The translations under genes were made by a program, and so were the position numbers. Below the pieces are notes generated by a model. That model was not told the DNA's origin and ran no database searches. It saw only the letters and a list, made by a program, of their open reading frames with translations. A stretch of DNA of 38,703 nt from a virus (taxonomy: Duplodnaviria; Heunggongvirae; Uroviricota; Caudoviricetes), in the IMG/VR virus record IMGVR_UViG_2724679538_000007, positions 1 to 38,703 of that record, one strand, 5' to 3'. Below, piece after piece: positions 1 to 38,136 of this stretch (position 1 is its first letter; each line of letters opens with the position of its first letter).

Positions 1-1071
1 TTATTTGATTTCAATTTTGTCCCACTCCCTGCCTCTGTCATCACGATACTGTGATGCCATGGTGTCCGACTTATGCCCGAGAAGATGTTGAGCAAATTTA
101 TCGCTTATCTGCTTCTCATAGAGTCTTGCAGACAAACTGCGCAACTCGTGAAAGGTAGGCGGATCCCCTTCGAAGGAAAGACCTGATGCTTTTCGTGCGC
201 GCATAAAATACCTTGATACTGTGCCGGATGAAAGCGGTTCACGACGAGTAGATGCAATTATGGTTTCTCCGCCAAGAATCTCTTTGCATTTATCAAGTGT
301 TTCCTTCATTGATATCCCGAGGGCATCAACATGCAATGCTGTTGGGATGGCAATTTTTACGCCTGTTTTGCTTTGCTCGACATAAAGATATCCATCTACG
401 ATATCAGACCACTTCATTTCGCATAAATCACCAACTCGCTGCCCGGTAACAACAGCCAGTTCCATTGCAAGTCTGAGCCAACATGGTGATGATTCTGCTG
501 CTTGATAAATTTTCAGGTATTCGTCAGCCGTAAGTCTTGATCTCCTTACCTCTGATTTTGCTGCGCGAGTGGCAGCGACCGGGTTTGTTGTTATATGGCC
601 TTCAGCTATTGCCTCTCGGAATGCATCGCTCAGTGTTGATCTGATTAACTTGGCTGACGCCGCCTTGCCCTCGTCTATGTATCCATTGAGCATTGCCGCA
701 ATTTCTTTTGTGGTGATGTTTTCAAGTGGAGCATCAGGCAGACCCCTCCTTATTGCTTTAATTTTGCTCATGTAATTTATGAGTGTCTTCTGCTTGATTC
801 CTCTGCTGGCGAGGATTTTTTCGTAGCGATCAAGCCATGAATGTAACGTAACAGAATTATCACTGTTGATTCTTGCTGTCAGAGGCTTGTGTTTGTGTCC
901 TGAAAATAACTCAATGTTGGCCTGTATAGCTTCAGTGATTGCTATCCTCCTGTCTCGGCCTAATCCAAACTCTTTACCCGTCCTTGGGTCCCTGTAGCAG
1001 TAATATCCATTGTTTCTTATATAAAGGTTAGGGGGTAAATCCCGGCGCTCATGACTTCGCCTTCTTCCCAT
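1..1071 (-). CDS. int: Tyrosine integrase, lambda Int type (356 aa)
   Basis: Translation matches phage lambda Int over its full length as I recall it (MGRRRSHERRDLPPNLYIRNNGYYCYRDPRTGKEFGLG ... HELRSLSARLYEKQ ... GHKSDTMASQYRDD). Confidence 0.97.
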   Translation of the reverse strand: MGRRRSHERRDLPPNLYIRNNGYYCYRDPRTGKEFGLGRDRRIAITEAIQANIELFSGHKHKPLTARINSDNSVTLHSWLDRYEKILASRGIKQKTLINYMSKIKAIRRGLPDAPLENITTKEIAAMLNGYIDEGKAASAKLIRSTLSDAFREAIAEGHITTNPVAATRAAKSEVRRSRLTADEYLKIYQAAESSPCWLRLAMELAVVTGQRVGDLCEMKWSDIVDGYLYVEQSKTGVKIAIPTALHVDALGISMKETLDKCKEILGGETIIASTRREPLSSGTVSRYFMRARKASGLSFEGDPPTFHELRSLSARLYEKQISDKFAQHLLGHKSDTMASQYRDDRGREWDKIEIK

Positions 1072-7071: not shown

Positions 7072-7788
7072 TCAAACCAGTCTGAGTTTTGTCTCAATTG
7101 CAACGCCTATAATCTTGCAGTTTCCATTGATTGGCACGAGAGGCCATGCAGGATTAAGTCCCTTGAGGTATTTATTTCCGCCGTCGATTATCAGCTTCTT
7201 GAATGTTGCTTCGTTAGAGTCAGAAAGTTTTGCTATGACCAAGCTGCCGTTGATCGCCTCCCTTCCGGTATCGAAAAGAACGAATGTTCCCTCTGGAATG
7301 CTTAACCCAACCGGTGCCGTCATTGAATCACCTTCCACTTTAAGCCAGAACGCATTACCTTGAATATGCGCGTCAGACTCAAGCCAAACATCTATGTCTT
7401 TAATGGTGTATGGTTCGCATGCTTCACACCACGAGCCAGCCTGGATACTGCTTAACACCGGATACCTCTTTCCTGCTCTGTATTCCCCTGCATACCTTAC
7501 GTTGGCATCGCTCTTAAGGCTTTCTGCCTGTTCTGCAACCTTGGCAGCAATTGACTGGCTAAAATCAGCAATTGAGACTTGCAACAATCGTGCAAAACCA
7601 GATGCAACCTCAACGTTTAGCGCATTTCTGCCATTAAGATAATGCCCTACCGCTCCTTGGGTGATACCCAGTTCATCAGCGATTGAGTATTGGGTTATTC
7701 CCAATTCTTTCTTTTTTGACTCATACAAAGCCTTAAGCCGCTTAGCGTCTTCCAGCTGTTCTGTCGTCAGTGATTTTTTATTTTCCAT
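7072..7788 (-). CDS. cI: CI-type prophage repressor (HTH N-domain plus LexA/S24-like autocleavage C-domain, 238 aa)
   Basis: LTTEQLEDAKRLKALYESKKKELGITQ and FWLKVEGDSMTAP ... FKKLI ... LNP parallel lambda CI ([47 protein letters not shown]). Confidence 0.93.
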   Translation of the reverse strand: MENKKSLTTEQLEDAKRLKALYESKKKELGITQYSIADELGITQGAVGHYLNGRNALNVEVASGFARLLQVSIADFSQSIAAKVAEQAESLKSDANVRYAGEYRAGKRYPVLSSIQAGSWCEACEPYTIKDIDVWLESDAHIQGNAFWLKVEGDSMTAPVGLSIPEGTFVLFDTGREAINGSLVIAKLSDSNEATFKKLIIDGGNKYLKGLNPAWPLVPINGNCKIIGVAIETKLRLV

Positions 7789-9513: not shown

Positions 9514-9621
9514 ATGAAATCAAAAATCAAATCGCTACTGGTCGCTGGTTATAACCACGGCTGGTTAAGTATTTCATTTGTCGATTTCTGGTTTAAAAAT
9601 CTCAATCTGAGGGAATCATGA
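9514..9621 (+). CDS. Hypothetical small ORF (35 aa) between O and the helicase gene
   Basis: ATG 4 nt after the O stop; TGA overlaps the helicase ATG (ATGA); no clear RBS. Confidence 0.25.
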   Translation: MKSKIKSLLVAGYNHGWLSISFVDFWFKNLNLRES

Positions 9622-11498
9622 CGCCAAGTGAACTTAGCGACCTGCTTTGGGCGCAGGTTGACAGGGTGGCTCCGCACCTGTTGCCAAACGGCAAGAAAGA
9701 GGGGCATGAGTGGGTTGCCGGTAACGTCAACGGCGACAAGGGAAACAGCCTTAAGGTCAACCTTAGCGGCAAGAAAAAATGGGCTGATTTCGCCGAGGGA
9801 GACGGCGGTGACATGCTTGATTTGTGGATGGCATGTCGTGGAATTAACCTGCATCAGGCTATGCAGGAAGCGAAAGCATTTCTCGGTATCAAGGATGACG
9901 ATCACCATTTCGATGCCAAACGTGAGAAAAAATTCTCCAGACCTGATCGCAAGAAAATCGCCCGCTACGTTACCAGAACAGAATCCCATCTTGAGTACCT
10001 GCAATCGCGTGGCATATCGCCAGAAATCGTAAAGCGCTACGAGGTTGTCAGCGGCAAGGTGTGGAATGGAGAGCGGGAACTGGATGCTCTGGTGATTCCG
10101 TACAAACGCGATGGTGAGTTGTTGCAGGTCAAGCGAATCAGCACTGAGCGCCCGGACGGGAAGAAAGTCATTATGGCAGAAGGTGATTGCGAACCTTGTC
10201 TGTTCGGATGGCAGGCTCTGGACGCTGGCGTGAGGGCGGTTGTACTTTGCGAAGGCGAAATTGATTGTATGAGCTATGCGCAATACGGCATCTCGGCGTT
10301 ATCCGTGCCGTTTGGTGGCGGGAAAGGCGCTAAGCAACAGTGGATTGAGTTTGAGTATCACAACCTCGACAGGTTTGAGGAAATATTCATCTCGATGGAT
10401 GTTGATGATGTTGGTCGTGAAGCCGCAAGGGAAATCGCAAGCCGACTCGGTGAACATCGTTGCCGTCTTGTTACTCTGCCGTACAAAGACATCAACGAAT
10501 GCCTGATGAACGGTGTTACCGAGGATGAAATCTGGCAGTACATCGGCACGGCATCCTACTTCGATCCTGAAGAACTCTACAGCGCGCGAGAGTTTTACCA
10601 GGACACTATCAACGCTTTCTACGGCAAGCAGCAGTATCTGTTTAATCCACCGTGGGAATCTCTGGCAGATAAATTCCAGTTCCGTGAGGCCGAGTTGACG
10701 CTGGTCAATGGTGTGAACGGTCACGGAAAAACGGAGGTTGTCGGGCATATGGCACTTGAGGCAATGCGTCAGGGTGTGAAGACGTGCATCGCGTCACTTG
10801 AGCTGAAGCCAGGCATTCTCCTTAAGCGACTTACCCGTCAGGCGACGTGCTGCAAGATGCCGCCAGTGCTGGAAATTGACTCTGCATTTAAATTTTATGA
10901 CGAAAGACTTTGGGTGTTTGGCCTGACCGGAACGGCGAAAGCCGACAGGCTGATCGAAATATTCGACTACGCTCGCCGCCGATACGGCATCCAGTTATTC
11001 ATCATCGACAGCCTGATGAAATGTGGCATAGGCGACGATGACTATAACGGGCAGAAGGCGTTTGTTGACTCGATTTGCGATTTCAAAAACAAAACAAACT
11101 CCCACGTCATTCTCGTTACTCACTCGCGAAAAGGTGACAGCGAAGAAAAACCAACCGGGAAAATGGACGTAAAAGGCTCTGGAGCGATAACAGACCTGAC
11201 AGACAACCTTTTCATCATCTGGCGTAACAAGGCTCGCGAGAGAGCGTTACAGAGAGTTCAGAGTGGTGAAAAGATGTCAGAGAAGGACGAACAGCTACTG
11301 GCATCTCCGGCATCTGTTTTGATGCTTGAAAAACAACGTAACGGCGAAGGTTGGGAAGGTGGTGTCCCGTTGTTCCTTGACGAGCAATCGCACCAGTTCC
11401 TGCAACTTGAATCAGGATCGCCATATAGCTACATCGCCAATATGCCGAAATCGGAATATGACGAGGCGTGGCGACAGGAAAACGTGACGGAGTATTAA
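9618..11498 (+). CDS. Replicative primase-helicase-like protein (626 aa) in the lambda P position
   Basis: Walker A TLVNGVNGHGKTEVV and Walker B-like LFIIDSLMK in the C-terminal half; N-terminal half with primase/TOPRIM-like acidic motifs (VVLCEGEIDCMSY, ISMDVDDVG); GAGGG RBS. Confidence 0.8.
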   Translation: MTPSELSDLLWAQVDRVAPHLLPNGKKEGHEWVAGNVNGDKGNSLKVNLSGKKKWADFAEGDGGDMLDLWMACRGINLHQAMQEAKAFLGIKDDDHHFDAKREKKFSRPDRKKIARYVTRTESHLEYLQSRGISPEIVKRYEVVSGKVWNGERELDALVIPYKRDGELLQVKRISTERPDGKKVIMAEGDCEPCLFGWQALDAGVRAVVLCEGEIDCMSYAQYGISALSVPFGGGKGAKQQWIEFEYHNLDRFEEIFISMDVDDVGREAAREIASRLGEHRCRLVTLPYKDINECLMNGVTEDEIWQYIGTASYFDPEELYSAREFYQDTINAFYGKQQYLFNPPWESLADKFQFREAELTLVNGVNGHGKTEVVGHMALEAMRQGVKTCIASLELKPGILLKRLTRQATCCKMPPVLEIDSAFKFYDERLWVFGLTGTAKADRLIEIFDYARRRYGIQLFIIDSLMKCGIGDDDYNGQKAFVDSICDFKNKTNSHVILVTHSRKGDSEEKPTGKMDVKGSGAITDLTDNLFIIWRNKARERALQRVQSGEKMSEKDEQLLASPASVLMLEKQRNGEGWEGGVPLFLDEQSHQFLQLESGSPYSYIANMPKSEYDEAWRQENVTEY

Positions 11499-11526: not shown

Positions 11527-11559
11527 CAGGCCTGCTGGTAATCGCAGGCCTTTTTATTT
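11527..11559 (+). terminator. Rho-independent terminator (tR2-like) after the replication genes
   Basis: CAGGCCTGC-tggtaatc-GCAGGCCT followed by TTTTTATTT. Confidence 0.65.
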
Positions 11560-11575
11560 GGGGGAGAGGGAAGTC

Positions 11576-12016
11576 ATGAAAAAACTAACCTTTGAAATTC
11601 GATCTCCAGCACATCAGCAAAACGCTATTCACGCGGTACAGCAAATTCTTCCAGACCCAACCAAACCAATCGTAGTAACCATTCAGGAACGCAACCGCAG
11701 CTTAGACCAGAATCGAAAGCTTTGGGCTTGCCTTGGTGACGTCTCTCGTCAGGTTGAATGGCATGGTCGCTGGCTGGATGCAGAAAGCTGGAAGTGTGTG
11801 TTTACCGCAGCATTAAAGCAGCAGGACGTTGTTCCTAACCTTGCCGGGAATGGCTTTGTGGTAATAGGCCAGTCAACCAGCAGGATGCGTGTAGGCGAAT
11901 TTGCGGAGCTATTAGAGCTTATACAGGCATTCGGTACAGAGCGTGGCGTTAAGTGGTCAGACGAAGCGCGACTGGCTCTGGAGTGGAAAGCAAGATGGGG
12001 AGACAGGGCGGCATGA
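11576..12016 (+). CDS. ninB: NinB (Orf-family recombination mediator, 146 aa)
   Basis: [76 protein letters not shown] matches lambda NinB as I recall it. Confidence 0.9.
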
Positions 12017-12195
12017 GGCGACAGCGACGAAGTATCACCGACATCATCTGCGAAAACTGCAAATACCTTCCAACGAAGCGCTCCAGAAATAAACGCAAGC
12101 CAATCCCAAAAGAATCTGACGTAAAAACATTCAACTACACGGATCACCTGTGGGATATCCGGTGGCTAAGACATCGTGCGAGGAATACAAGGTGA
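12013..12195 (+). CDS. Nin-region small protein (lambda NinD/NinE-type, CxxC-containing, about 60 aa)
   Basis: [51 protein letters not shown] resembles a lambda nin-region protein; ATG overlaps the ninB stop (ATGA); which nin letter is uncertain. Confidence 0.7.
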
Positions 12196-12362
12196 TTGAC
12201 CCAAATCGAAGTTACGAACAAGAAAGCGTCGAGCGGGCTTTAACGTGCGCTAACTGCGGTCAGAAGCTGCATGTGCTGGAAGTTCACGTGTGTGAGCACT
12301 GCTGCGCAGAGCTGATGAGCGATCCGAATAGCTCAATGTACGAGGAAGAAGACGATGAGTGA
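12192..12362 (+). CDS. Nin-region small Cys-rich protein (lambda NinE/NinF-type, about 56 aa; track ORF starts further upstream at 12150)
   Basis: [47 protein letters not shown] resembles a lambda nin-region protein; GTG overlapping the previous stop with an AGGA RBS is the most parsimonious start. Confidence 0.6.
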
Positions 12363-13077
12363 GTTAATAAATGGCAATGCCATCAAAATGACAAGCATTG
12401 AAATCGCTGAGTTGGTTGGTAAGCGTCATGACAATGTGAAACGTACCATCGAAACGCTGGCTAAAAATGGTGTTATCCGGCTTCCTCAAATTGAGGTTTC
12501 CGAAAGAATCAATAACTTAGGGTTCAATGTTCAGTACGAGCATTACGTCTTCGAAGGCGAACAAGGTAAGCGAGACAGTATTGTCGTTGTTGCCCAGTTG
12601 TCGCCAGAGTTCACCGCTCGCCTTGTTGACCGTTGGCGAGAGCTTGAAGAATCTGCGGTTAATATCCCAAAAACACTACCGGAAGCGTTGCGCCTTGCTG
12701 CTGATCTTGCTGAGCAGAAAATTCAACTGGAAAACCAGCTCGCAATTGCCGCACCTAAAGTTGAGTTTGCCGATCGCGTTGGCGAGGCCAGCGGAATTTT
12801 GATTGGAAACTTTGCAAAGGTTGTCGGTATTGGTCCGAACAAACTGTTTGCGTGGATGCGTGATCACAAAATCCTTATTGCTTCAGGTTCCCGGCGAAAT
12901 GTGCCAATGCAGGAATATATGGATCGCGGCTATTTCACCGTAAAAGAAACAGCGGTCAACACAAATCACGGAATACAGATATCGTTCACCACAAAAATCA
13001 CCGGGCGTGGTCAACAGTGGCTGACCAGAAAGCTGCTCGATAACGGAATGCTGAAAGTAACAGGGGAGGCTGCTTAA
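12355..13077 (+). CDS. Rha-family regulator / antirepressor (N-terminal Rha-like domain, C-terminal KilA-C/Ant-like domain, 240 aa)
   Basis: N-terminus (MTSIEIAELVGKRHDNVKRTIETL) looks like a Rha-type phage regulator; C-terminal half resembles antirepressor KilAC domains; family assignment from memory. Confidence 0.65.
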   Translation: MSELINGNAIKMTSIEIAELVGKRHDNVKRTIETLAKNGVIRLPQIEVSERINNLGFNVQYEHYVFEGEQGKRDSIVVVAQLSPEFTARLVDRWRELEESAVNIPKTLPEALRLAADLAEQKIQLENQLAIAAPKVEFADRVGEASGILIGNFAKVVGIGPNKLFAWMRDHKILIASGSRRNVPMQEYMDRGYFTVKETAVNTNHGIQISFTTKITGRGQQWLTRKLLDNGMLKVTGEAA

Positions 13078-13367
13078 TGGCTAACCTACGCAAAGAAGCG
13101 CGCGGCAGAGAATGCCAGGTACGTATTTACGGCGTATGCAATGGTAATCCTGAAACCACAGTTCTGGCACATTACCGGATGGCTGGAATTTGCGGAACGG
13201 GAATGAAGCCTGACGACCTGATCGGCGCATGGGCTTGTAGCGCGTGTCACGATGAAATCGACCGACGCACCCATAACCTCGACAACAAAGACGCCAGACT
13301 TTACCACCTCGAAGGCGTAATCAGGACGCAGGCGATACTGCTGAAGGAGGGGAAGATTAAGCCATGA
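13077..13367 (+). CDS. Nin-region Cys-rich protein (putative zinc-binding, 96 aa)
   Basis: CQVRIYGVC ... CSACHDE; GGGGAGG RBS; between the antirepressor and rusA. Confidence 0.55.
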   Translation: MANLRKEARGRECQVRIYGVCNGNPETTVLAHYRMAGICGTGMKPDDLIGAWACSACHDEIDRRTHNLDNKDARLYHLEGVIRTQAILLKEGKIKP

Positions 13368-13726
13368 ACGAATATCAGTTTGTACTTCCATACCCGCCGT
13401 CGGTGAATACCTACTGGCGAAGACGGGGAAGCCAATACTACATCAGCGATAAAGGCCAGAAATACCGAAAAGACGTTCAGCAAATCATCCGCCAACTTAA
13501 GTTAGACATTTTCACCAAATCACGACTCCGCATCAAAGTCATCGCAGACGTTCCAGACTCCCGCCGCCGCGACCTCGACAACATCCTGAAAGGTTTACTC
13601 GACTCCCTTATCCACGCCGGATTTGCGGAAGACGACGAGCAATTCGATGACATTCGCGTAATTCGTGGCGTGAAAGTACCAGGCGGAAGGCTTGGAATAA
13701 AAATCACCGAACTGGAGAACGCATGA
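13364..13726 (+). CDS. rusA: RusA-type Holliday junction resolvase (120 aa)
   Basis: YPPSVNTYWRRRG ... VPDSRRRDLDNILKGLLDSLIHAGFAEDDEQFDDIRV ... GGRLGIKITEL parallels E. coli RusA (PWPPSNNRYYR ... MPDRRRRDLDNLQKA ... GGRLELTITEM). Confidence 0.9.
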   Translation: MNEYQFVLPYPPSVNTYWRRRGSQYYISDKGQKYRKDVQQIIRQLKLDIFTKSRLRIKVIADVPDSRRRDLDNILKGLLDSLIHAGFAEDDEQFDDIRVIRGVKVPGGRLGIKITELENA

Positions 13727-13911
13727 ACGCCACAATTCAAACGATACCAGAGCTTCTTATCCAGACACGAGGCAATCAGACCGAAGTGGCAAGGATGCTT
13801 TCCTGCGCAAGAGGAACAGTGCTCAAGTACAACCGAGACAGCAAAGGCGAGCGTCACGTAATAGTTAACGGCGTCCTGATGGTCAAACAGGGCAAAAGGG
13901 GAAGGCCATGA
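13723..13911 (+). CDS. ninH: NinH-like small DNA-binding protein (62 aa)
   Basis: GNQTEVARMLSCARGTVLKYNRDSKGERHVIVNGVLMV parallels lambda NinH (GNQTEVARRLKCSRGTVRKY...). Confidence 0.7.
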   Translation: MNATIQTIPELLIQTRGNQTEVARMLSCARGTVLKYNRDSKGERHVIVNGVLMVKQGKRGRP

Positions 13912-14531
13912 GACTCGAAAGCGTAGCTAAATTTCATTCGCCAAAAAGCCCGATGATGAGCGACTCACCACGGGCCACGGCTTCTGACTCTCTTTCCGGT
14001 ACTGATGTGATGGCTGCTATGGGGATGGCGCAATCACAAGCCGGATTCGGAATGGCTGCATTCTGTGGTAAGCACGAACTCAGCCAGAATGACAAACAAA
14101 AGGCTATCAACTATCTGATGCAATTTGCACACAAGGTATCGGGGAAATACCGTGGCGTTGCAAAGCTTGAAGGAAATACTAAGGCAAAGGTACTGCAAGT
14201 GCTCGCAACATTCGCTTATGCGGATTATTGCCGTAGTGCCGCGACGCCGGGCGCAAGATGCAGAGATTGCCACGGTACAGGCCGTGCGGTTGATATAGCC
14301 AAAACAGAGCAGTGGGGGAGAGTTGTTGAGAAAGAGTGCGGAAGATGCAAAGGTGTCGGCTATTCAAGAATGCCAGCAAGCGCCGCATATCGCGCTGTAA
14401 CGATGCTAATCCCAAACCTTACTCAACCCACCTGGTCACGCACTGTTAAGCCGCTGTATGACGCTCTGGTGGTGCAATGCCACAAAGAAGAGTCAATCGC
14501 AGACAACATTTTGAATGCGGTCACACGTTAG
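13908..14531 (+). CDS. Q: Late-gene antiterminator Q, lambda type (207 aa)
   Basis: MRLESVAKFHSPKSPMMSDSPRATASDSLSGTDVMAAMGMAQSQAGFGMAAFCGKHELSQNDKQKAINYLMQF... matches lambda Q essentially throughout as I recall it. Confidence 0.95.
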   Translation: MRLESVAKFHSPKSPMMSDSPRATASDSLSGTDVMAAMGMAQSQAGFGMAAFCGKHELSQNDKQKAINYLMQFAHKVSGKYRGVAKLEGNTKAKVLQVLATFAYADYCRSAATPGARCRDCHGTGRAVDIAKTEQWGRVVEKECGRCKGVGYSRMPASAAYRAVTMLIPNLTQPTWSRTVKPLYDALVVQCHKEESIADNILNAVTR

Positions 14532-26445: not shown

Positions 26446-27293
26446 TGGCGGATTCGAATCTCAATGTGCCGGTAATCATTCAGGCTACACGGCTAGACAC
26501 ATCAGTCCTTCCACGCAATATCTTCTCGCAGTCGTATCTGCTTTACGTTATCGCACAGGGCACTGATGTTGGTAACGTGGCTAACAAAGCCAACGAGGCC
26601 GGACAGGGCGCTTATGACGCACAAGTCAGGAACGATGAGCAGGATGTGATTCTGGTCGATCACGAAATTCGACTGGCATCGGCTGAATCGAAGATACAGG
26701 ACCACGAAACAAGGATCACTAACGCAGAAGCGGCGATAGTCGGCCTTGATTCTCGATTAACGACAGCAGAAAACGATATTGATTATCTGACGAATGAAGT
26801 TATCGCCATTCAAAACACGCTTTCAGACCATGAAACTCGCATTGATGCTCTGGAGTATGCAACCACGCGCAAGAAGTCAGAGGTTGTTTACTCTGGCATA
26901 TCAGTAACCATTCCGACAGCGCCGACCAACCTTGTTAGCCTGCTGAAAACGCTCACGCCGTCATCCGGCACGTTAGCACCATTCTTCGACACCGTTAACA
27001 ACAAGATGGTTGTGTTCAACGAGAACAAAACCTTGTTCTTCAAGCTGTCGATCGTCGGGACGTGGCCCAGCGGAACCGCCAACAGGTCAATGCAGCTAAC
27101 CTTTTCCGGCTCTGTTCCTGACACACTGGTAAGCAGTCGCAACTCGGCGACAACAACCGATAACATCTTGTTAGCTACGTTCTTCAGCGTGGATAAAGAC
27201 GGCTTTCTTGCCACAAATGGCAGTACGTTAACCATTCAGTCGAATGGTGCGGCGTTTACCGCCACAACCATCAAAATCATTGCGGAGCAGTGA
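26445..27293 (+). CDS. Tail needle protein (gp26 family) with an extended C-terminal knob-like domain (282 aa)
   Basis: N-terminus [43 protein letters not shown] matches the P22 gp26 N-terminal domain; about 50 aa longer than P22 gp26, with a different C-terminus, as in Sf6-type needles. Confidence 0.85.
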
Positions 27294-27760
27294 TGGAAAT
27301 AAAGCTCATCGATAATCCGGTGAAGCTTGCAGAATTCCTCAACAACCCGGCAAACACGGGGAATATCGTAGACAGTGGAGATAAATACTACATCAAGCCT
27401 GATGCGGTATATCTCGGCATCTACGAAGGATTAGTGCTGGCTGGAGTTCATGAAGTGCGTAACTTCTGGCATAGCGTTGTTGAATGCCATGCGGTGTATG
27501 ACCCCGGATTCCGTGGTGAATATGCACTGCAAGGGCATCGATTATTCTGCAAATGGCTTCTCGAAAACTCACCATTCCTTAACAGCATCACCATGGTTCC
27601 TGACACAACGAAATACGGACGGTCAATTATCCGTTTGCTTGGCGCTACCCGTGTTGGTCACCTTGATGATGCGTACATGAGTAACGGAAAACCGGTTGGA
27701 ATCACCCTCTATCAATTACCTCGTTCGAAATATGAGGAGCTATTAAATGTTAGTACTTAG
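27290..27760 (+). CDS. Virion assembly/ejection-associated protein in the P22 gene 14 position (156 aa)
   Basis: Synteny only (between the needle gene and the first ejection protein); similarity to P22 gp14 not verified. Confidence 0.6.
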
Positions 27761-28427
27761 CGAAAGCTTCAAGAATAAATTGCTTCCCATGAATGGGTAT
27801 ATGAAAGGCGGCAGCGACTCCGGCTCTAAAGCCCAGGCACGCGCAACTGAAAAGGGTATCGAATTGCAGCGCGAAATGTGGCAGACGAACATGCAGAACC
27901 TTGCACCGTTCACACCACTCGCTCAGCAGTACGTATCACAGTTGCAGAATCTTTCCTCTCTTCAGGGGCAAGGTCAGGCTCTTAACCAGTATTACAACTC
28001 TCAGCAGTACAAAGACCTTGCAGGTCAGGCGCGCTATCAGAGTCTGGCAGCAGCAGAGGCAACGGGTGGATTAGGCTCTACAGCAACAGGAAACCAGTTA
28101 GCAGCAATCGCACCTACACTCGGTCAAAACTGGCTGTCAGGTCAGATGAACAACTACAACAATCTGGCAAACATTGGCCTTGGTGCTCTTACAGGTCAGG
28201 CAAACGCCGGGCAGAACTACGCTAACAACGTCAGCCAATTGTATCAACAGCAGGCGGCAGCATCTGCGGCGAATGCTAACCGACCATCAGGATTGCAATC
28301 AGCTTTGGGCGGTGCCATGAGCGGTGCGGCATCAGGGGCGATGATTGGCTCTGTGGTGCCTGGAATAGGTACAGCTGTTGGCGCTATTGGTGGCGGCATT
28401 ATCGGTGGTCTTGGATCATTGTTTTAA
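27747..28427 (+). CDS. Ejection (internal virion) protein, P22 gp7-like (226 aa)
   Basis: Gln/Ala/Gly-rich low-complexity protein with a Gly-rich hydrophobic C-terminus; GAGGAG RBS; synteny with P22 gene 7. Confidence 0.7.
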   Translation: MLVLSESFKNKLLPMNGYMKGGSDSGSKAQARATEKGIELQREMWQTNMQNLAPFTPLAQQYVSQLQNLSSLQGQGQALNQYYNSQQYKDLAGQARYQSLAAAEATGGLGSTATGNQLAAIAPTLGQNWLSGQMNNYNNLANIGLGALTGQANAGQNYANNVSQLYQQQAAASAANANRPSGLQSALGGAMSGAASGAMIGSVVPGIGTAVGAIGGGIIGGLGSLF

Positions 28428-28436
28428 GGTGGGAAT

Positions 28437-29909
28437 ATGGCTACTTGGCAACAAGGAATCAACTCAGGCGGTTTTCTTGCTGGTATCGGTGGGCAAAACT
28501 CAAATGCGCCAAAGGCAAGTGATGTAAGTGAGGCGTTGGCCTATATTCGCCAGAACAACGAAATGGAGCGTTCAGGGCGCAATAACATCGGCCTTCAGGC
28601 ATTGCAGGGACTTGGTAGTGTCGCTCAAACATATCAAGCCGCAAAGCAACAGGAAGCGGATGCTGCATTCCAAAAAGAATATGCGGCAGCCATCCAGTCC
28701 GGTGATCGACAGCAGGTTCGAGATCTGATGACCAAATATCCTGGTCAATTAGAGAAGATTCAGTCTGGTATGAAGTGGGCAGACGAAGACCAGCGCAATT
28801 CTATCGGCACCTTAGCGGCAGGCGCACGCCTTGCGGCCTCGTCTCCAGAAGCAATGCAATCATGGCTGCAAAACAACGCCAAGGAACTGGCGCGCGTCGG
28901 TGTTGACCCTAACAACGTTGCTCAGATGTATCAGCAGAATCCTTCAGGATTTGGTGAGTTTGTTGATCACCTTGGAATGGCTGCTCTTGGTCCGATTGAC
29001 TACTTCAATGTTCAGGACAAGATGGCAGGTCGTGAGATTGACCGAGGCAGGCTGGCAGAGACAATCCGCAGCAATCAGGCTGGCGAGGCACTTCAGGCGA
29101 GAGGGCAGGATATTAGCAGAGCAAATGCGTTAACGTCAGCATATGCACCAACAGCCGCAATGCAGAATTACAATCAGTACGCGCAAATGTTAAAGGCGGA
29201 TCCAGATGGTGCAGCGGCATTTGCGGCAGCGGCGGGAATTAATCCCAATGCTAAGAAATTACTTAAGGTTGAAACCAATCCTGATGGCTCGGTAACTAAG
29301 TATTACACCGATGGCAGCGAGGAAGCCGGAAAACTAAACCAACCTATATCTGGTGATGGCATTAAACCAATTAGTTTGCCACAAGCGCAAAGCATCATAG
29401 ATAAGGCTAATGAGGGTTCCAAGAAGGCGGCAGGATTTGCTTTGCGATTAAAAGATTCAATGGACTCAATGAATCAGCTTAGTAAAAGCATTGACCCTAA
29501 GCGAGTTGCATTAATAAATCGCTCTCTTGGTGATGGGACTATTGCAAATTTAAGCCTATCACCAGCGGAGCAGCAATATATGGTAAATGCGAGAGACGCC
29601 TTGTATGCAATTTTGCGCCCAGAAACAGGTGCAGCAATTACTCTGCCAGAGATGCAGGAGTATTCCAAAATGTACCTGCCTCAGCCTGGTGATTCCAAGG
29701 CTGCTACTGAAACAAAAATGCGAAAAATGCAGGGCCAATATAACTCATTACGTGGTCAGTCTGGTCGCGTTTATGATGCTTTGGTGGTTTCAAGTGCTGC
29801 AAATAGTCAACAACAGAGCAATAGCCAACAACCGACAAATACCCAACAGCAGCAGAGTCAATCCGGATCATATACCTCAAAATCAGGCATTCAATTTACG
29901 GTGGAATGA
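28437..29909 (+). CDS. Ejection protein, P22 gp20-like (490 aa)
   Basis: Synteny and size; AAGGTGG RBS. Confidence 0.75.
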
Positions 29910-31753
29910 TGAAAGTAACTGCAAACGGTAAGACATTTACCTTCCCTGATGGTACGAGCACGGAAGATATTGGCACCGCCATTGATGAGTATTTTGCTGG
30001 TCAGGCTGTTCAGCAACAAACAGTTAATCAGGTCAATAATGAACCAGCACGTGAAGAACCATCATTGATGCAACAAGCTGGCGATTGGCTCACAGGTGGT
30101 CAAAGTGCAGGGCAAATTGCAGAGCAGGCTGGTCGTGGTCTGGTAAACATACCATTTGACGTATTGCAGGGTGGCGCAAGTCTGATTAATGCAATCAGCC
30201 AGGGGCTTGGTGGCCCCAAGGTTTTGGACGATGTCTATCGTCCAGTAGATCGACCAACAGACCCTTATGCGCAAGCTGGAGAAACAATTGGCGGGTATTT
30301 AGTTCCAGGAGTTGGAACGGCAGGAAGCATGGCTATTGGATCACTGGCAGAGGCCGCAAATCAGAAAGGCGATTTCGCACAAAATGCAGCTAAAAATGCC
30401 GGAGTTAACCTTGCCGCTCAGGGTGTTCTTTCCGCAGCAGCAAAGGGAATAGGGCGTGGAATAACGGCTATAAAAGGTGATATTGCGCCAGAAGTGGCGA
30501 AGAAAATTGCCACATCAGAATCGATGGGCGTGACACCAATGACATCTGATGTTATCCCGCCGAAAAATGCTTTCACTCGCGGACTTACTCAGGATGCTGA
30601 GGGGGCTTTGCTCGGGACAGGCTCAAAGCGAGCGGAGCAATATGCAACGCGTAGTAAGCTGGTAAGCAATTATTTTGACCGTTTTGGTGAGTACAACCCT
30701 GATGATGTGGTGAAATCTCTTACCACCACGTTAAGGGGGCGGAAGGATGCCGCTGGCGCTGTTATCAATGACGTCACCAATAAAATGGGTAATGCCGCAG
30801 TTGATACCACAAATACCATGAATGCTCTGAATACAGCGATCGCAAGACAGGAACGGCTTGGGACGTCTGCCAATCAAAGCCTGCTTACATCCTTGCGTAA
30901 CCTACGTGAAGAATTAGCAAACCCTGCAACTGATTTGGATGTTACGTTTGATCTCTTGCGTCAGCACAGAACAGCATTTAGATCTAATGTTCAGGGAGAT
31001 GCTATGGTCTTCCCCAACCAGGCAAAAGCAGCTACCAATATGGTAGAGAATGCAATGTCAAAAGACCTTCGTAACGCAGTTGCTAAAAACCTCGGTGCAT
31101 CAGACGCAGCAAAATACCTTAAAGCAAATTCCGATTATGCAAACGTTTATAATAAGGTGCTTAATAAAAACATTGCCAACAAGCTCAACAAGGCAAGCAG
31201 TGAAGCCAGTCCTGAACTTATAAATACCGTTGTATTAAGCAGAAAACCATCTGACGTGAAACGAATCTGGAGCGCACTGGATGATAAGGGGAAAGATGCT
31301 ATGCGTGCAGCTTACGTCAGCAAAATAGCGGAAAAGGCCGGGGACTCTCCAGCCAAGTTCATCACTGAAGTTAATAAGCTGAAATCTCAGTCAGGCGGTG
31401 AAATTTACAACACTATTTTTTCTGGAAAGCACATGAAAGAGCTTGATGCTCTTCATGAAGTTCTACAGCAAACAGCAAGGTCAGACACCGCAAATGTAGT
31501 AACTCAGACGGGGCAATCGCAAGCCAACAGGATAAGGACGATTGGCGCAACTGCGACCCTTGGCGTATCAATGGGGCTTGAGGCTGGTTTTGGTGCAATG
31601 ATGCGCTTGTATGAGTCCAAAGCAGCAAGGAATGCTCTCTTACGTCTGGCAAACACTAAAACTGGAACGCCAGCTTATGAAAGAGCGCTAAATAATGCTG
31701 CAAATGCGATACGCCCTATACTTTCAAGCCAAATTACAGCAGAACAGCAATAA
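29906..31753 (+). CDS. Ejection protein, P22 gp16-like (615 aa)
   Basis: Synteny and size (P22 gp16 is about 609 aa); start overlaps the gp20 stop. Confidence 0.75.
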
Positions 31754-33089: not shown

Positions 33090-34991
33090 ATGACAGATTC
33101 AATAAATGCCAATGTTGTAGTGAGTATGCCTTCGCAACTCTTCACTATGGCTCGTTCTTTTAAAGCCGTAGCCAATGGCAAAATTTATATCGGGAAAATT
33201 GACACTGATCCGGTAAATCCTGAAAACCGGATTCAGGTTTATGTAGAGAACGAAGACGGCTCTCACGTTCCTGTTTCTCAACCAATCATCATTAACGCTG
33301 CTGGTTATCCGGTATATAACGGACAGATTGCTAAATTCGTAACTGTGCAAGGCCATTCCATGGCTGTTTATGATGCGTATGGTGCACAGCAATTCTATTT
33401 TCCTAATGTGCTGAAGTATGACCCTGACCAGTTCAAACCTGAACTACAAGGTGCCAATGGAGCAAGCTTAATTGGTACTAATCATCGCGGCACCTTAAAG
33501 GCTGACTTAGATCGCATTGACAATAGAACGTCGGGACAGTCCATCGCAGATTTAAAGTCTAATACTGGTGATATTGTTATCGACTCCTCTGTTACGGACG
33601 CAATCACCCCAATTTCAGGCAGCGAGATATCTGGGGCGAGTAACGGGGAACATGTCACCGCTAAGGGTACTGTCGGGATTACTATAAATGATAGCAGGGT
33701 TAAGGTTGATAACTTGCTAATGCGCGGCGACGGCACTGTAGACTACACGGACACCTCACCGACATATAATGCCATTATCTATGGCTCGGACGTTGTTGTG
33801 TCCCGTTCATACGCTAAAGACACGACAATGGGGTACGACTTGGCCGCCGGTGCTTCCAACGTTAAGCTAATTGGTAATACAAGTGAAAATATGACGTCGC
33901 ACCCCGCCGTTGGTACACCACCTGTTTCAGCCGGTGGCTATGGTGTGCTTCTGGGAACTAACGAGGACGTATTAATCCTGGGCCATTCTGCTAAGGGCAC
34001 AAACCCTGCTGACCGCCACGCAGTATACCTATCAAATACGAACAACACTGACCAGAACAAAGATGTTCGGGTAATCGGCTTACGTGCGGATTACAGCGCA
34101 GGTCCATCCGCGGGGGATAAGCCGGAGCGGTCATCACCTATGATATTCGCCCGCGGCAACAACGGCGTCATTATCAGTTCTTCCCAACTCCGTGGCGGCG
34201 GAGCCGGTATAAATTTCACAGATGAGCGCGTAGGATACAGTTCAATAACCTTGAGTGATTTGCAATTACTGGATATTCGTAAGAATACCGCGGATGAGTC
34301 ATGGGGTATCGCACTCAACCACGCGTCTGCTAACGCTTCCAATGTCAACACCCAGAATATTATTAACGGCGTTAATATAGTAATGGCGCCCGGGAGCACA
34401 TCTGCCGACAGGTCGAATCAGTACCCTATACACCTTAATTCACAGCGGTATGTAAATATTGATAATGCCATCATAGCATCGTCGGGGTTGGCGTACGGAA
34501 TACGCCTGATAGCTACAAGTTACTGTAATATCAGTAATGTAGTAGGGTTTACTAACGATGGGACATCTGCCGCGGCGGCCGTGGCGTTCTTCCAGTTTCA
34601 GAACGGAAGCAGTAATATTAAATTAAGCAATATAAACGTCCAATCAAGAAATACAATGTTCGCAGGGCTGGATAATGTAACCGACTTGCAAGTGGATTGG
34701 GTGCGTAAAGTTCGCATTAACGTTGTATCTGGAGCGGCTACAGTATCAGGGGATATATGGGAACTAGTTAGCGGCGTAACCGTCACTGGGGCGAGTATAG
34801 CTGTTCAACTTAAGGGCCATGTAACACAAACCGCTGCTGATGGCGCTATCGTAAGGCCGGCTAGTGCTAATCAATTTATTGTTGCTGGCACTGACTCTAA
34901 AAGGATTACAATTTCTGTATATAACGTTAATGGCACTGGTGTTGTGCCAAACACTGGTACTTATTCGTTCGATATTGTGCTATATAAATAG
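33090..34991 (+). CDS. Tailspike protein (P22 gp9-like N-terminal head-binding domain, divergent receptor-binding domain; 633 aa)
   Basis: N-terminal about 120 aa parallel P22 tailspike (ANVVVS ... [22 protein letters not shown] ... [12 protein letters not shown] ... NVLKYDPDQ); the rest is unrelated by eye and Gly/Asn/Ser-rich, consistent with a beta-helix. Confidence 0.88.
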
Positions 34992-37977: not shown

Positions 37978-38136
37978 CTCTGTCTCAGGTCACTAATACT
38001 ATCTAAGTAGTTGATTCATAGTGACTGCACATGCTGTGTTTTGCAGTATTATGTAGTCTATTATTTAGACAAAAATCTTCATAACGCATTGATATTAATG
38101 TTTTTTACTGTTTCTTGTTCAGCTTTTTTATACTAA
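37978..38136 (+). other. attR: lambda-type P arm with Int arm-type sites, ending in the 15-bp core GCTTTTTTATACTAA (38122-38136)
   Basis: caggtcactaatactatctaagtagttgattcatagtgactgca...cagcttttttatactaacttgagcgaaacggg parallels the lambda attP P arm and the core/attB B' junction as I recall them. Confidence 0.8.

Follow-up and report, generated by a model that had tools for sequence, protein, structure and literature searches.

On the plus strand of a 38,703-nt stretch of Caudoviricetes DNA (IMG/VR record IMGVR_UViG_2724679538_000007, positions 1 to 38,703; hereafter the window), the gene at 12355-13077 is roi, a named accessory regulator of lambdoid phages first described in HK022. We consider it probable that its product, Roi, targets its own gene: the Rha-type winged helix would bind a 13-bp dyad at 12484-12496, inside roi, in a complex stabilised by integration host factor (IHF), and would thereby limit the supply of the effector located in its C-terminal half. 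Neither the gene nor its general properties are new; the conservation of the dyad and the residue-to-base correspondence presented below may be new detail, and the searchable literature, which does not extend to the 1996 Roi paper, yielded no description of a family-wide intragenic dyad or of a residue-to-base code.

The open reading frame (ORF) begins with an ATG that overlaps the ninF stop codon (ATGAGTGA), has GAGGA 8 nt upstream of the start, and codes for 240 aa on the plus strand, as an earlier note on this DNA had proposed. The same note had seen a Rha-like N-terminus and an antirepressor-type C-terminal domain, and both are recognised by Pfam above the gathering threshold, with Phage_pRha (PF09669) at aa 12-99 (E = 6.4e-9, 36.7 bits, cut-off 29.9) and ANT/KilAC (PF03374) at aa 126-228 (E = 7.6e-33, 113.5 bits, cut-off 25.3), the latter being further borne out by 58% identity to P1 Ant1. 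The protein also matches PHROG 63, ‘anti-repressor Ant’ (E = 2.7e-98), and misses the cut-off of the NCBIfam phage_pRha subfamily TIGR02681 (17.9 vs 45.95 bits); by these profiles, it is a Rha-domain protein in the Pfam sense, outside the TIGR02681 subfamily. Over its full length, the gene is 97.4-97.8% identical at the nucleotide level to those of HK620 (97.4%), CUS-3, HK140, HK633, Stx2 (Shiga toxin 2) phage 86 and others, which are annotated as roi, “DNA-binding protein Roi” or “anti-repressor Ant”, and its product shares 87% aa identity with HK022 Roi (L002:4656-5381) over 240/241 residues. A search of 5426 complete E. coli genomes located roi in 1110 (about 20%). The elements of the gene are as follows.

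12355..13077, plus strand: roi coding sequence (240 aa and stop), delayed-early gene of the PR operon, assigned by ORF, nt/aa identity and both Pfam domains
12385..12660, plus strand: N-terminal Rha-type winged-helix domain, aa 11-102, modelled as strand 11-13, helix 14-21, recognition helix 25-37, wing strands 45-52 and 58-67, helices 68-82 and 84-102
12418..12546, plus strand: hypervariable mosaic patch, aa 22-64 (recognition helix and wing)
12433..12459, plus strand: codons for the putative specificity-bearing part of the recognition helix (N27-V-K-R-T-I-E-T-L35), in which residues 27, 30 and 34 co-vary with dyad bases
12484..12496, no strand: 6-1-6 dyad CCTCAAaTTGAGG, centre 12490 (gene nt 136), proposed Roi operator, a perfect palindrome showing covariation
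12507..12519, plus strand: perfect IHF core AATCAATAACTTA (consensus WATCAANNNNTTR), starting 17 nt from the dyad centre
12676..12780, plus strand: long linker helix, aa 108-142, overlapping the start of the ANT/KilAC match (model, pLDDT 55-70)
12730..13038, plus strand: C-terminal ANT/KilAC domain, aa 126-228, homologous to P1 Ant1 (Pfam, Ant1 identity, structure model)

The intragenic dyad and the recognition helix

Comparison of the window and HK022 roi genes reveals 56.0% nucleotide identity over gene nt 62-195, as opposed to 98.4% before and 96.0% after this interval, and only three residue differences in aa 65-240. The divergence sits in a single patch, which in the structure model covers the recognition helix and the wing of a MerR/Xis-like winged helix. 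Column variability is greatest at aa 41-60 and rises again, though less strongly, at aa 101-110, and close alleles display at least eight distinct versions of the patch. The model was built on 130 diverse sequences, an earlier alignment of 22 having been too shallow (mean predicted local distance difference test score, pLDDT, of 47.5). The likeness of the N-terminal domain to winged helices of the MerR and excisionase type is at the fold level only (9-16% identity, Z ≤5.5), and no sequence-family membership is shared with them; a sequence search gave no relative in the PDB, and Foldseek gave no PDB match at E ≤ 0.001. The linker helix at aa 108-142 is, in the model, a possible dimerisation element, and aa 150-230 are modelled at pLDDT 82-88 as a short strand, two helices, a helix, a long beta hairpin and a helix.

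The dyad occupies codons for the first wing strand, and CTCAANTTGAG has no other perfect copy in the window. Different palindromes stand at this codon position in other alleles, such as CTGCAtTGCAG in HK022, CCTGCAtTGCAGG in a Stx2a phage, and further TCCCCCAaTGGGGGA, ACTCCGcCGGAGT and CGCCAgTGGCG; the window allele (CTCAA.TTGAG, vs CTGCA.TGCAG in HK022) is of the HK620 type. When 16 alleles were aligned with MAFFT, 85.6% of the dyad cells were paired, as opposed to 26-41% with the partners slid by 1-3 columns, and the covariation value was 0.415 vs 0.03-0.10 in the slid arrangements. Five of the six pairs changed on both sides, yielding 14 compensatory cells, and none of 500 shuffles reached this score. 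A scan of all 708 centres in a codon alignment of 19 alleles placed the dyad centre at the top, with 5.11 of 6 pairs (background 1.51, sd 0.63; next best 3.94).

The same centre again came out on top, with 4.88 of 6 pairs, when 651 centres were scanned in 49 held-out alleles (background 1.55, sd 0.45; next best 3.45). The first scan of viral contigs had returned only 98-99% identical copies, which are uninformative for covariation, and the alignment of distant homologues was then used as the query; the held-out set consists of distant Rha-KilAC loci from IMG/VR, fetched via peptide patterns lying outside the dyad region and reduced to 49 non-redundant sequences no more than 80% identical in aa 12-70. 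Overall, at least five of six pairs are formed at the dyad position in 58 of the 71 alleles with a locatable helix anchor. The dyad is kept in differing genomic contexts, including the nin region, the vicinity of an S24 repressor in a Pseudomonas prophage, and a position after integrase and Arc genes in Sinorhizobium.

The bases of the half-site follow the residues of the recognition helix. In a tally of 55 distinct helix/site combinations, residue 27 corresponds to base -4 (N with T in 28/29, K with C in 14/14, S with A in 8/8, and D with G in 4/4), residue 30 to base -3 (R or Q with C in 49/50, I or V with G in 4/4), and residue 34 to base -2 (R with C in 34/36; T, S, N or D with A in 19/19). 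Named by their helix features, the resulting classes have the following half-sites.

N and T: CTCA
N and R: CTCC
S and R: CACC
K and R: CCCC
D and R: CGCC
N, I or V, and R: CTGC

These features assort independently across the combinations, and such modular assortment of helix and base features is what direct readout by the recognition helix would predict. The pairings are chemically sensible on the complementary strand, where Lys and Arg would face G, Asp would face C, and Asn would face A. Since the helix codons lie 25-60 nt upstream of the dyad, the correspondence is not a coding artefact.

A number of further observations concern the dyad or its surroundings. One-mismatch copies in the window are not above chance (4 found, 1.65 expected, including those at 9601, 12755 and 24882). 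The one at 12755 falls into invariant codons and exhibits no covariation, and was rejected as a candidate, while the one at 9601-9611 (CTCAATCTGAG, one mismatch) precedes the start codon of the primase/helicase gene by 7 nt. Also set aside was another perfect 6-1-6 palindrome, ATGGCAaTGCCAT, at 12371-12383 near the 5′ end of roi: it occurs only in E. coli alleles and is absent from other genera, and is therefore probably a chance or lineage-specific feature. Two IMG/VR relatives with the helices NVLRDID and NVLADID (L169 and L170) have 6-2-6 palindromes, GCACAAttTTGTGC and GCTGAAttTTCAGC, at the equivalent place, indicating that the intragenic dyad may extend to subfamilies with other spacing.

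Several individual loci deserve mention as well. A Klebsiella prophage (L105, 884-3226) has a Rha-KilAC gene with the KRTIETL helix of the window and a CTCAAaTTGAG dyad; it lies in an immI-like cluster composed of two Arc/Mnt-like genes, a P22_AR_N antirepressor-like gene and the Rha-KilAC gene, directly followed by a tape-measure gene. In a metagenomic phage (L102), a Rha-only gene at 1076-1504 (142 aa, Phage_pRha E = 6.5e-18) overlaps the downstream Rha-KilAC gene at 1501-2229, and the two are tandem Rha paralogues. The Stx phages KU238070 and LC616071 (L005 and L006) form three of six dyad pairs in gene nt 125-170 and contain no perfect IHF core there; their recognition helix, NVRISIERL, resembles that of the CTGCA class despite the absent dyad, and this roi type may be a decayed or re-targeted allele. 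In the Stx1a phage LC645434 (L003, 1501-2223), roi is a pseudogene, codon 45 having become a TAA stop through a C-to-T change in the dyad's left arm (CCTTAAATTGAGG). Together with the IS629 insertions described in roi of some Stx2a phages (PMC4587872), this suggests that roi is dispensable.

The adjoining IHF core

The window has five matches to the IHF consensus WATCAANNNNTTR, vs 1.9 expected, and about 0.035 would be expected in 723 bp. The core inside roi persists in spite of diverged flanks in alleles from HK022 (AATCAATGATTTA), Stx phages, Yersinia, Pantoea and Serratia. It codes for I-N-(N/D/G)-L-G, and its codons are fixed in the 12 alleles compared: Ile is ATC in 12/12 (41% elsewhere in roi), Leu is TTA in 12/12 (5% elsewhere), and the first Asn is AAT in 12/12. 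Fixation of synonymous codons argues for selection acting on the DNA, and not on the protein alone. Fourteen cores were identified; twelve of them begin 17 nt from the dyad centre, and the remaining ones lie at +20 and -27. The core accompanies the dyad in 12 of 58 dyad-bearing alleles. HK022 roi carries the core and the dyad at gene positions identical to those in the window. An IHF site inside the gene, one of the properties that characterise the Roi group, can thus be predicted here at the sequence level.

Other perfect cores in the window are found at 38004-38016, at 38082-38094 (minus strand) and at 34869-34881, near the window end. If the genome is circularly permuted, these three would adjoin the integrase gene at 1-1071 (minus strand), and may be attP arm sites.

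Genomic setting and known relatives

The whole window represents a P22-like (Lederbergvirus-type) E. coli phage, with HZ41, APC_JM3.2 and IME10 as its closest records. The genes around roi are listed below.

9618-11498: primase/helicase (Pfam)
11528..11551, plus strand: tR2-like intrinsic terminator upstream of the nin region (8-bp stem, 6 GC pairs, T-run)
11558-12016: ninB (Pfam NinB)
11953-12195: ninE (Pfam NinE)
12150..12362, plus strand: ninF (Pfam NinF), stop overlapping the roi start
13077-13367, plus strand: ybcO / DUF1364 (Pfam)
13364-13726, plus strand: rusA (Pfam)
13723-13911, plus strand: ninH (Pfam)
13908-14531, plus strand: Q (Pfam)

The nin-region location given in the earlier note holds, with roi placed between ninF and ybcO-rusA, except that ybcO intervenes between roi and rusA. 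The order ninB-ninE-ninF-roi-ybcO-rusA-ninH-Q is identical in HK620 and HK022 (the HK620 neighbours being named ninF, roi, HkbD, rus, ninH and Q), and related phages hold roi and then ninG in the slot after ninF. The annotated tR2 of HK620 is placed correspondingly. Upstream lies an immunity region with an N-like gene, a LexA-like cI at 7072-7788 (minus strand; PHROG 4) that is 99.6% identical to HK620 cI, a cro-like gene (PHROG 35), cII and an O-like gene. The replication gene that follows the O-like gene at 9618-11498 encodes a 626-aa fusion of Toprim and DnaB-like (primase/helicase) parts, in the place where HK620 and HK022 carry a DnaB-type P protein; set against the immunity region shared with HK620, it forms what in sequence terms is a clear mosaic joint.

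No promoter-like site was detected between 11400 and 14573, nor any sigma-70-like promoter inside roi, and no LexA box was matched within or near the gene. Judging from its arrangement, roi is translationally coupled to ninF and lies downstream of the tR2-like terminator. In the absence of a promoter or LexA box of its own, this coupling and the upstream terminator imply that Roi is made only after PR has been derepressed and N has acted and, consequently, that it cannot start the induction of its own prophage.

Roi of the HK022/HK620 type, to which the window protein belongs by orthologous sequence, by its two domains and by the slot between ninF and ybcO-rusA or ninG, is also annotated in H19B and in Stx phages. 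Rha of phi80 and ORF201 of P22 are in the same Pfam family (Phage_pRha) as the N-terminal domain of Roi, are not known to have a KilAC half, and, unlike roi, lie in the late operon. The phi80 and P22 Rha gene products block lytic growth in IHF-deficient hosts, as has been reported for Roi.

By sequence comparison, the C-terminal half of Roi is homologous to P1 Ant1, to P1 KilA and to the KilAC domain of Listeria AriS. Roi aa 73-234 and P1 Ant1 aa 178-342 are 58% identical over 165 residues (E = 2e-65), and both proteins match Pfam ANT/KilAC. Ant1 differs in its N-terminal half, which is devoid of a Rha domain; it resides in the immI operon under control of the C4 antisense RNA, and acts on C1, a repressor type absent from the window phage. 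The P1 record (NC_005856, L108) has a predicted IHF site at 48945-48957, inside ant1 (48688-49731) and at the start of ant2 (48937), which is reminiscent of the IHF core in roi. AriS of Listeria phage phi10403S, the one KilAC protein functionally dissected in the searchable literature, inhibits the SOS response through its KilAC domain, opposing induction, and regulates genes of its own phage through a variable N-domain; its authors point out that N-domains alternate among AntA/B, Bro-N and pRha. The KilA-C part of Gp07 from S. aureus phi11 is growth-inhibitory in E. coli. AriS and Gp07 share with Roi a layout in which a variable N-terminal phage-regulator domain precedes ANT/KilAC, with activities split by half, yet they are distant Firmicutes sequences with other N-domains, and SOS inhibition and filamentation are known for them and not for Roi. 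Ant of P22 and Ant of Stx phage phi24B have only the annotation label in common with Roi: they belong to other families (ORF6N and P22_AR_C, or P22_AR_N) with no sequence relation to it, and in Stx phages such an Ant is the immediate upstream neighbour of roi.

Probable self-targeting by Roi and its alternatives

HK022 Roi is reportedly a helix-turn-helix protein that binds within its own gene near an IHF site, with IHF stabilising the complex; point mutants that grow on IHF-minus hosts are said to bind the Roi site differently, and the C-terminal half is said to resemble P1 Ant1 and KilA. Papers citing Clerget and Boccard (J Bacteriol 1996) describe HK022 Roi as a DNA-binding protein tied to lytic growth and to IHF, and not as an antirepressor. 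When the conserved, co-varying dyad and the helix code are combined with the reported binding of Roi in its own gene beside IHF, the simplest interpretation takes 12484-12496 to be the Roi operator and 12507-12519 to be the IHF site.

In the scheme that we propose, the N-antiterminated PR transcript would yield Roi with delayed-early timing, and the winged helix of Roi, probably in dimeric form, would bind the 13-bp dyad within its own ORF. In enterobacterial nin-region alleles, IHF positioned 17 nt away would bend the DNA and stabilise the Roi-DNA complex. With a single perfect copy of the site in the window, the only obvious phage target is roi itself, which suggests self-limitation; this could proceed through an intragenic roadblock or repression complex, or through titration of Roi onto its own gene, and would result in a low level of the C-terminal effector domain. 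Loss of IHF would undo the complex and leave Roi mis-regulated, and its Ant/KilA-like half, toxic or regulatory in every homologue tested, would then block lytic growth, in agreement with the published phenotype. As the C-terminal half is near-invariant across heteroimmune phages, its partner is probably a conserved host or general one, rather than the cognate CI. The role of the dyad as the Roi site, binding as a dimer, the autoregulatory outcome and the target of the effector are what we infer.

A number of points weigh against this scheme. The alleles are related, and helix and dyad are linked in one mosaic patch, so that the helix/dyad counts are not independent events, and shared ancestry or linkage within the patch could explain part of the correlation. 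Thirteen of the 71 alleles fall below five of six pairs, and some, such as the Stx-phage alleles L005 and L006, have no dyad. The outer CC...GG of the dyad is partly due to a conserved Pro codon and the G-initial codon after it, and the half-site centres are close together for a classical helix-turn-helix dimer. In addition, a simple roadblock would be expected to lower the expression of Q in the presence of IHF; since hosts with IHF support good growth of the phage, a strict roadblock fits poorly.

Among the alternatives, a plausible one, to which we lean less, is that Roi is mainly a host-directed effector, with KilAC inhibiting RecA/SOS or division and growth, and with the N-domain and the operator only setting the dose; it overlaps the self-targeting explanation, from which it differs by naming the target. 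The KilAC domain of AriS inhibits SOS, probably via RecA, as it does in homologues whose N-domain is of another type, pRha included; in E. coli, Gp07 KilA-C leads to filamentation, the P1 record states that the kilA product ‘can kill host’, and the near-invariance of the C-terminal half fits a conserved host target. However, these data come from distant Firmicutes homologues or from overexpression, and fold comparison turned up no resemblance to any known inhibitor of RecA or FtsZ. We regard it as unlikely that the Roi-IHF complex serves as a transcriptional gate on the PR transcript toward Q, timing the late genes and perhaps acting in trans on co-infecting phages with the same dyad. Q does follow the dyad and IHF core by about 1.4 kb within one operon, Roi can block lytic growth according to the title of the 1996 paper, and at least six specificities have arisen among operators and helices, a diversification like that of immunity specificities; but three loci (L103, L104 and L105) have the same intragenic dyad in unrelated contexts without a downstream Q, and growth inhibition occurs without IHF, when the Roi-IHF complex should be weaker. 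N-modified transcription complexes moreover resist many blocks, which also counts against such a gate. It is very improbable that the dyad is an RNA hairpin acting in the stability, translation or processing of roi mRNA, instead of a protein site on DNA. A 5-bp stem with a 3-nt loop does appear in the minimum-energy fold of 12450-12540, and compensatory changes would preserve an RNA stem just as well, but this fold does not exceed shuffled sequences in stability (z = -0.32) and has no Rfam match. Moreover, the innermost pair, impossible across a 1-nt loop, is complementary in 14/15 alleles, only one G-U occurs, and an RNA hairpin leaves the tracking of recognition-helix residues by dyad bases unexplained.

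The earlier note had cast Roi as an antirepressor expressed from PR that could modulate the lysis-lysogeny decision of this phage or of co-resident prophages. Its domains and location stand, whereas the antirepressor function, unproven as it is, must on balance be called improbable in its classical form: the C-terminal half is Ant-like, and the name “antirepressor” reflects homology only. We find it quite unlikely that the C-terminal half inactivates the repressor of its own phage (lytic lock-in) or those of co-resident prophages (trans-induction), even though it is 58% identical to that of Ant1, Ant1/Ant2 are annotated in the P1 record as antagonising C1 via complex formation, curated and automatic annotations name the family ‘anti-repressor Ant’, and some relatives, such as L105, have the gene in an immI-like region beside a P22-Ant-like gene. 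The HK022 orthologue is described as a DNA-binding protein, and the allele comparisons point to an N-terminal domain that reads DNA within its own gene. The Ant-like half is constant across immunity types, differing at only the three residues mentioned above between HK022 and the window, and a tblastn search with the window CI found no match in the HK022 immunity region (26500-30100), so that co-variation of the effector with its cognate repressor, an antirepressor feature, is not seen in Roi. It should be kept in mind that P22 Ant is broad-spectrum and that repressor co-variation is hence not strictly defining for antirepressors. Known antirepressor genes have their own or an SOS-controlled promoter, and roi has neither; independent control of expression by LexA, Mnt/Arc or antisense RNA, a hallmark of antirepressors, is likewise missing from it. 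P1 C1 is not known to be related to the LexA-like CI of the window phage. Furthermore, AriS KilAC suppresses induction instead of promoting it, Stx phages possess a separate Ant of another family (ORF6N and P22_AR_C) directly upstream of roi, and no report of Roi binding or inactivating a phage repressor was found in the searchable literature. Roi may nonetheless act on co-resident heteroimmune prophages.

For annotation, it follows that “anti-repressor Ant” on roi-type genes is a homology label and not evidence of a trans-acting inducer, a point that touches about one fifth of complete E. coli genomes and many Stx phages. If the dyad is the Roi operator, it would provide a precise site and single-residue predictions for a regulator for which no mechanistic follow-up since 1996 was found, as well as a simple recognition code for a large family of phage winged helices and a rationale for the non-permissiveness of IHF-deficient hosts. 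Because roi precedes Q and, in Stx phages, also stx, the timing of toxin production could depend on how roi is regulated. More tentatively, and with slightly less than even confidence, the sequence comparisons suggest that Rha-KilAC regulators are portable, self-targeting specificity cassettes with at least six helix/operator specificities across Proteobacteria and a near one-to-one code linking residues 27, 30 and 34 to bases -4, -3 and -2. If true, this would amount to a predictable and re-programmable code of winged-helix recognition, and to a second, immunity-like specificity system in temperate phages, which would limit or enable cross-talk between co-resident prophages.

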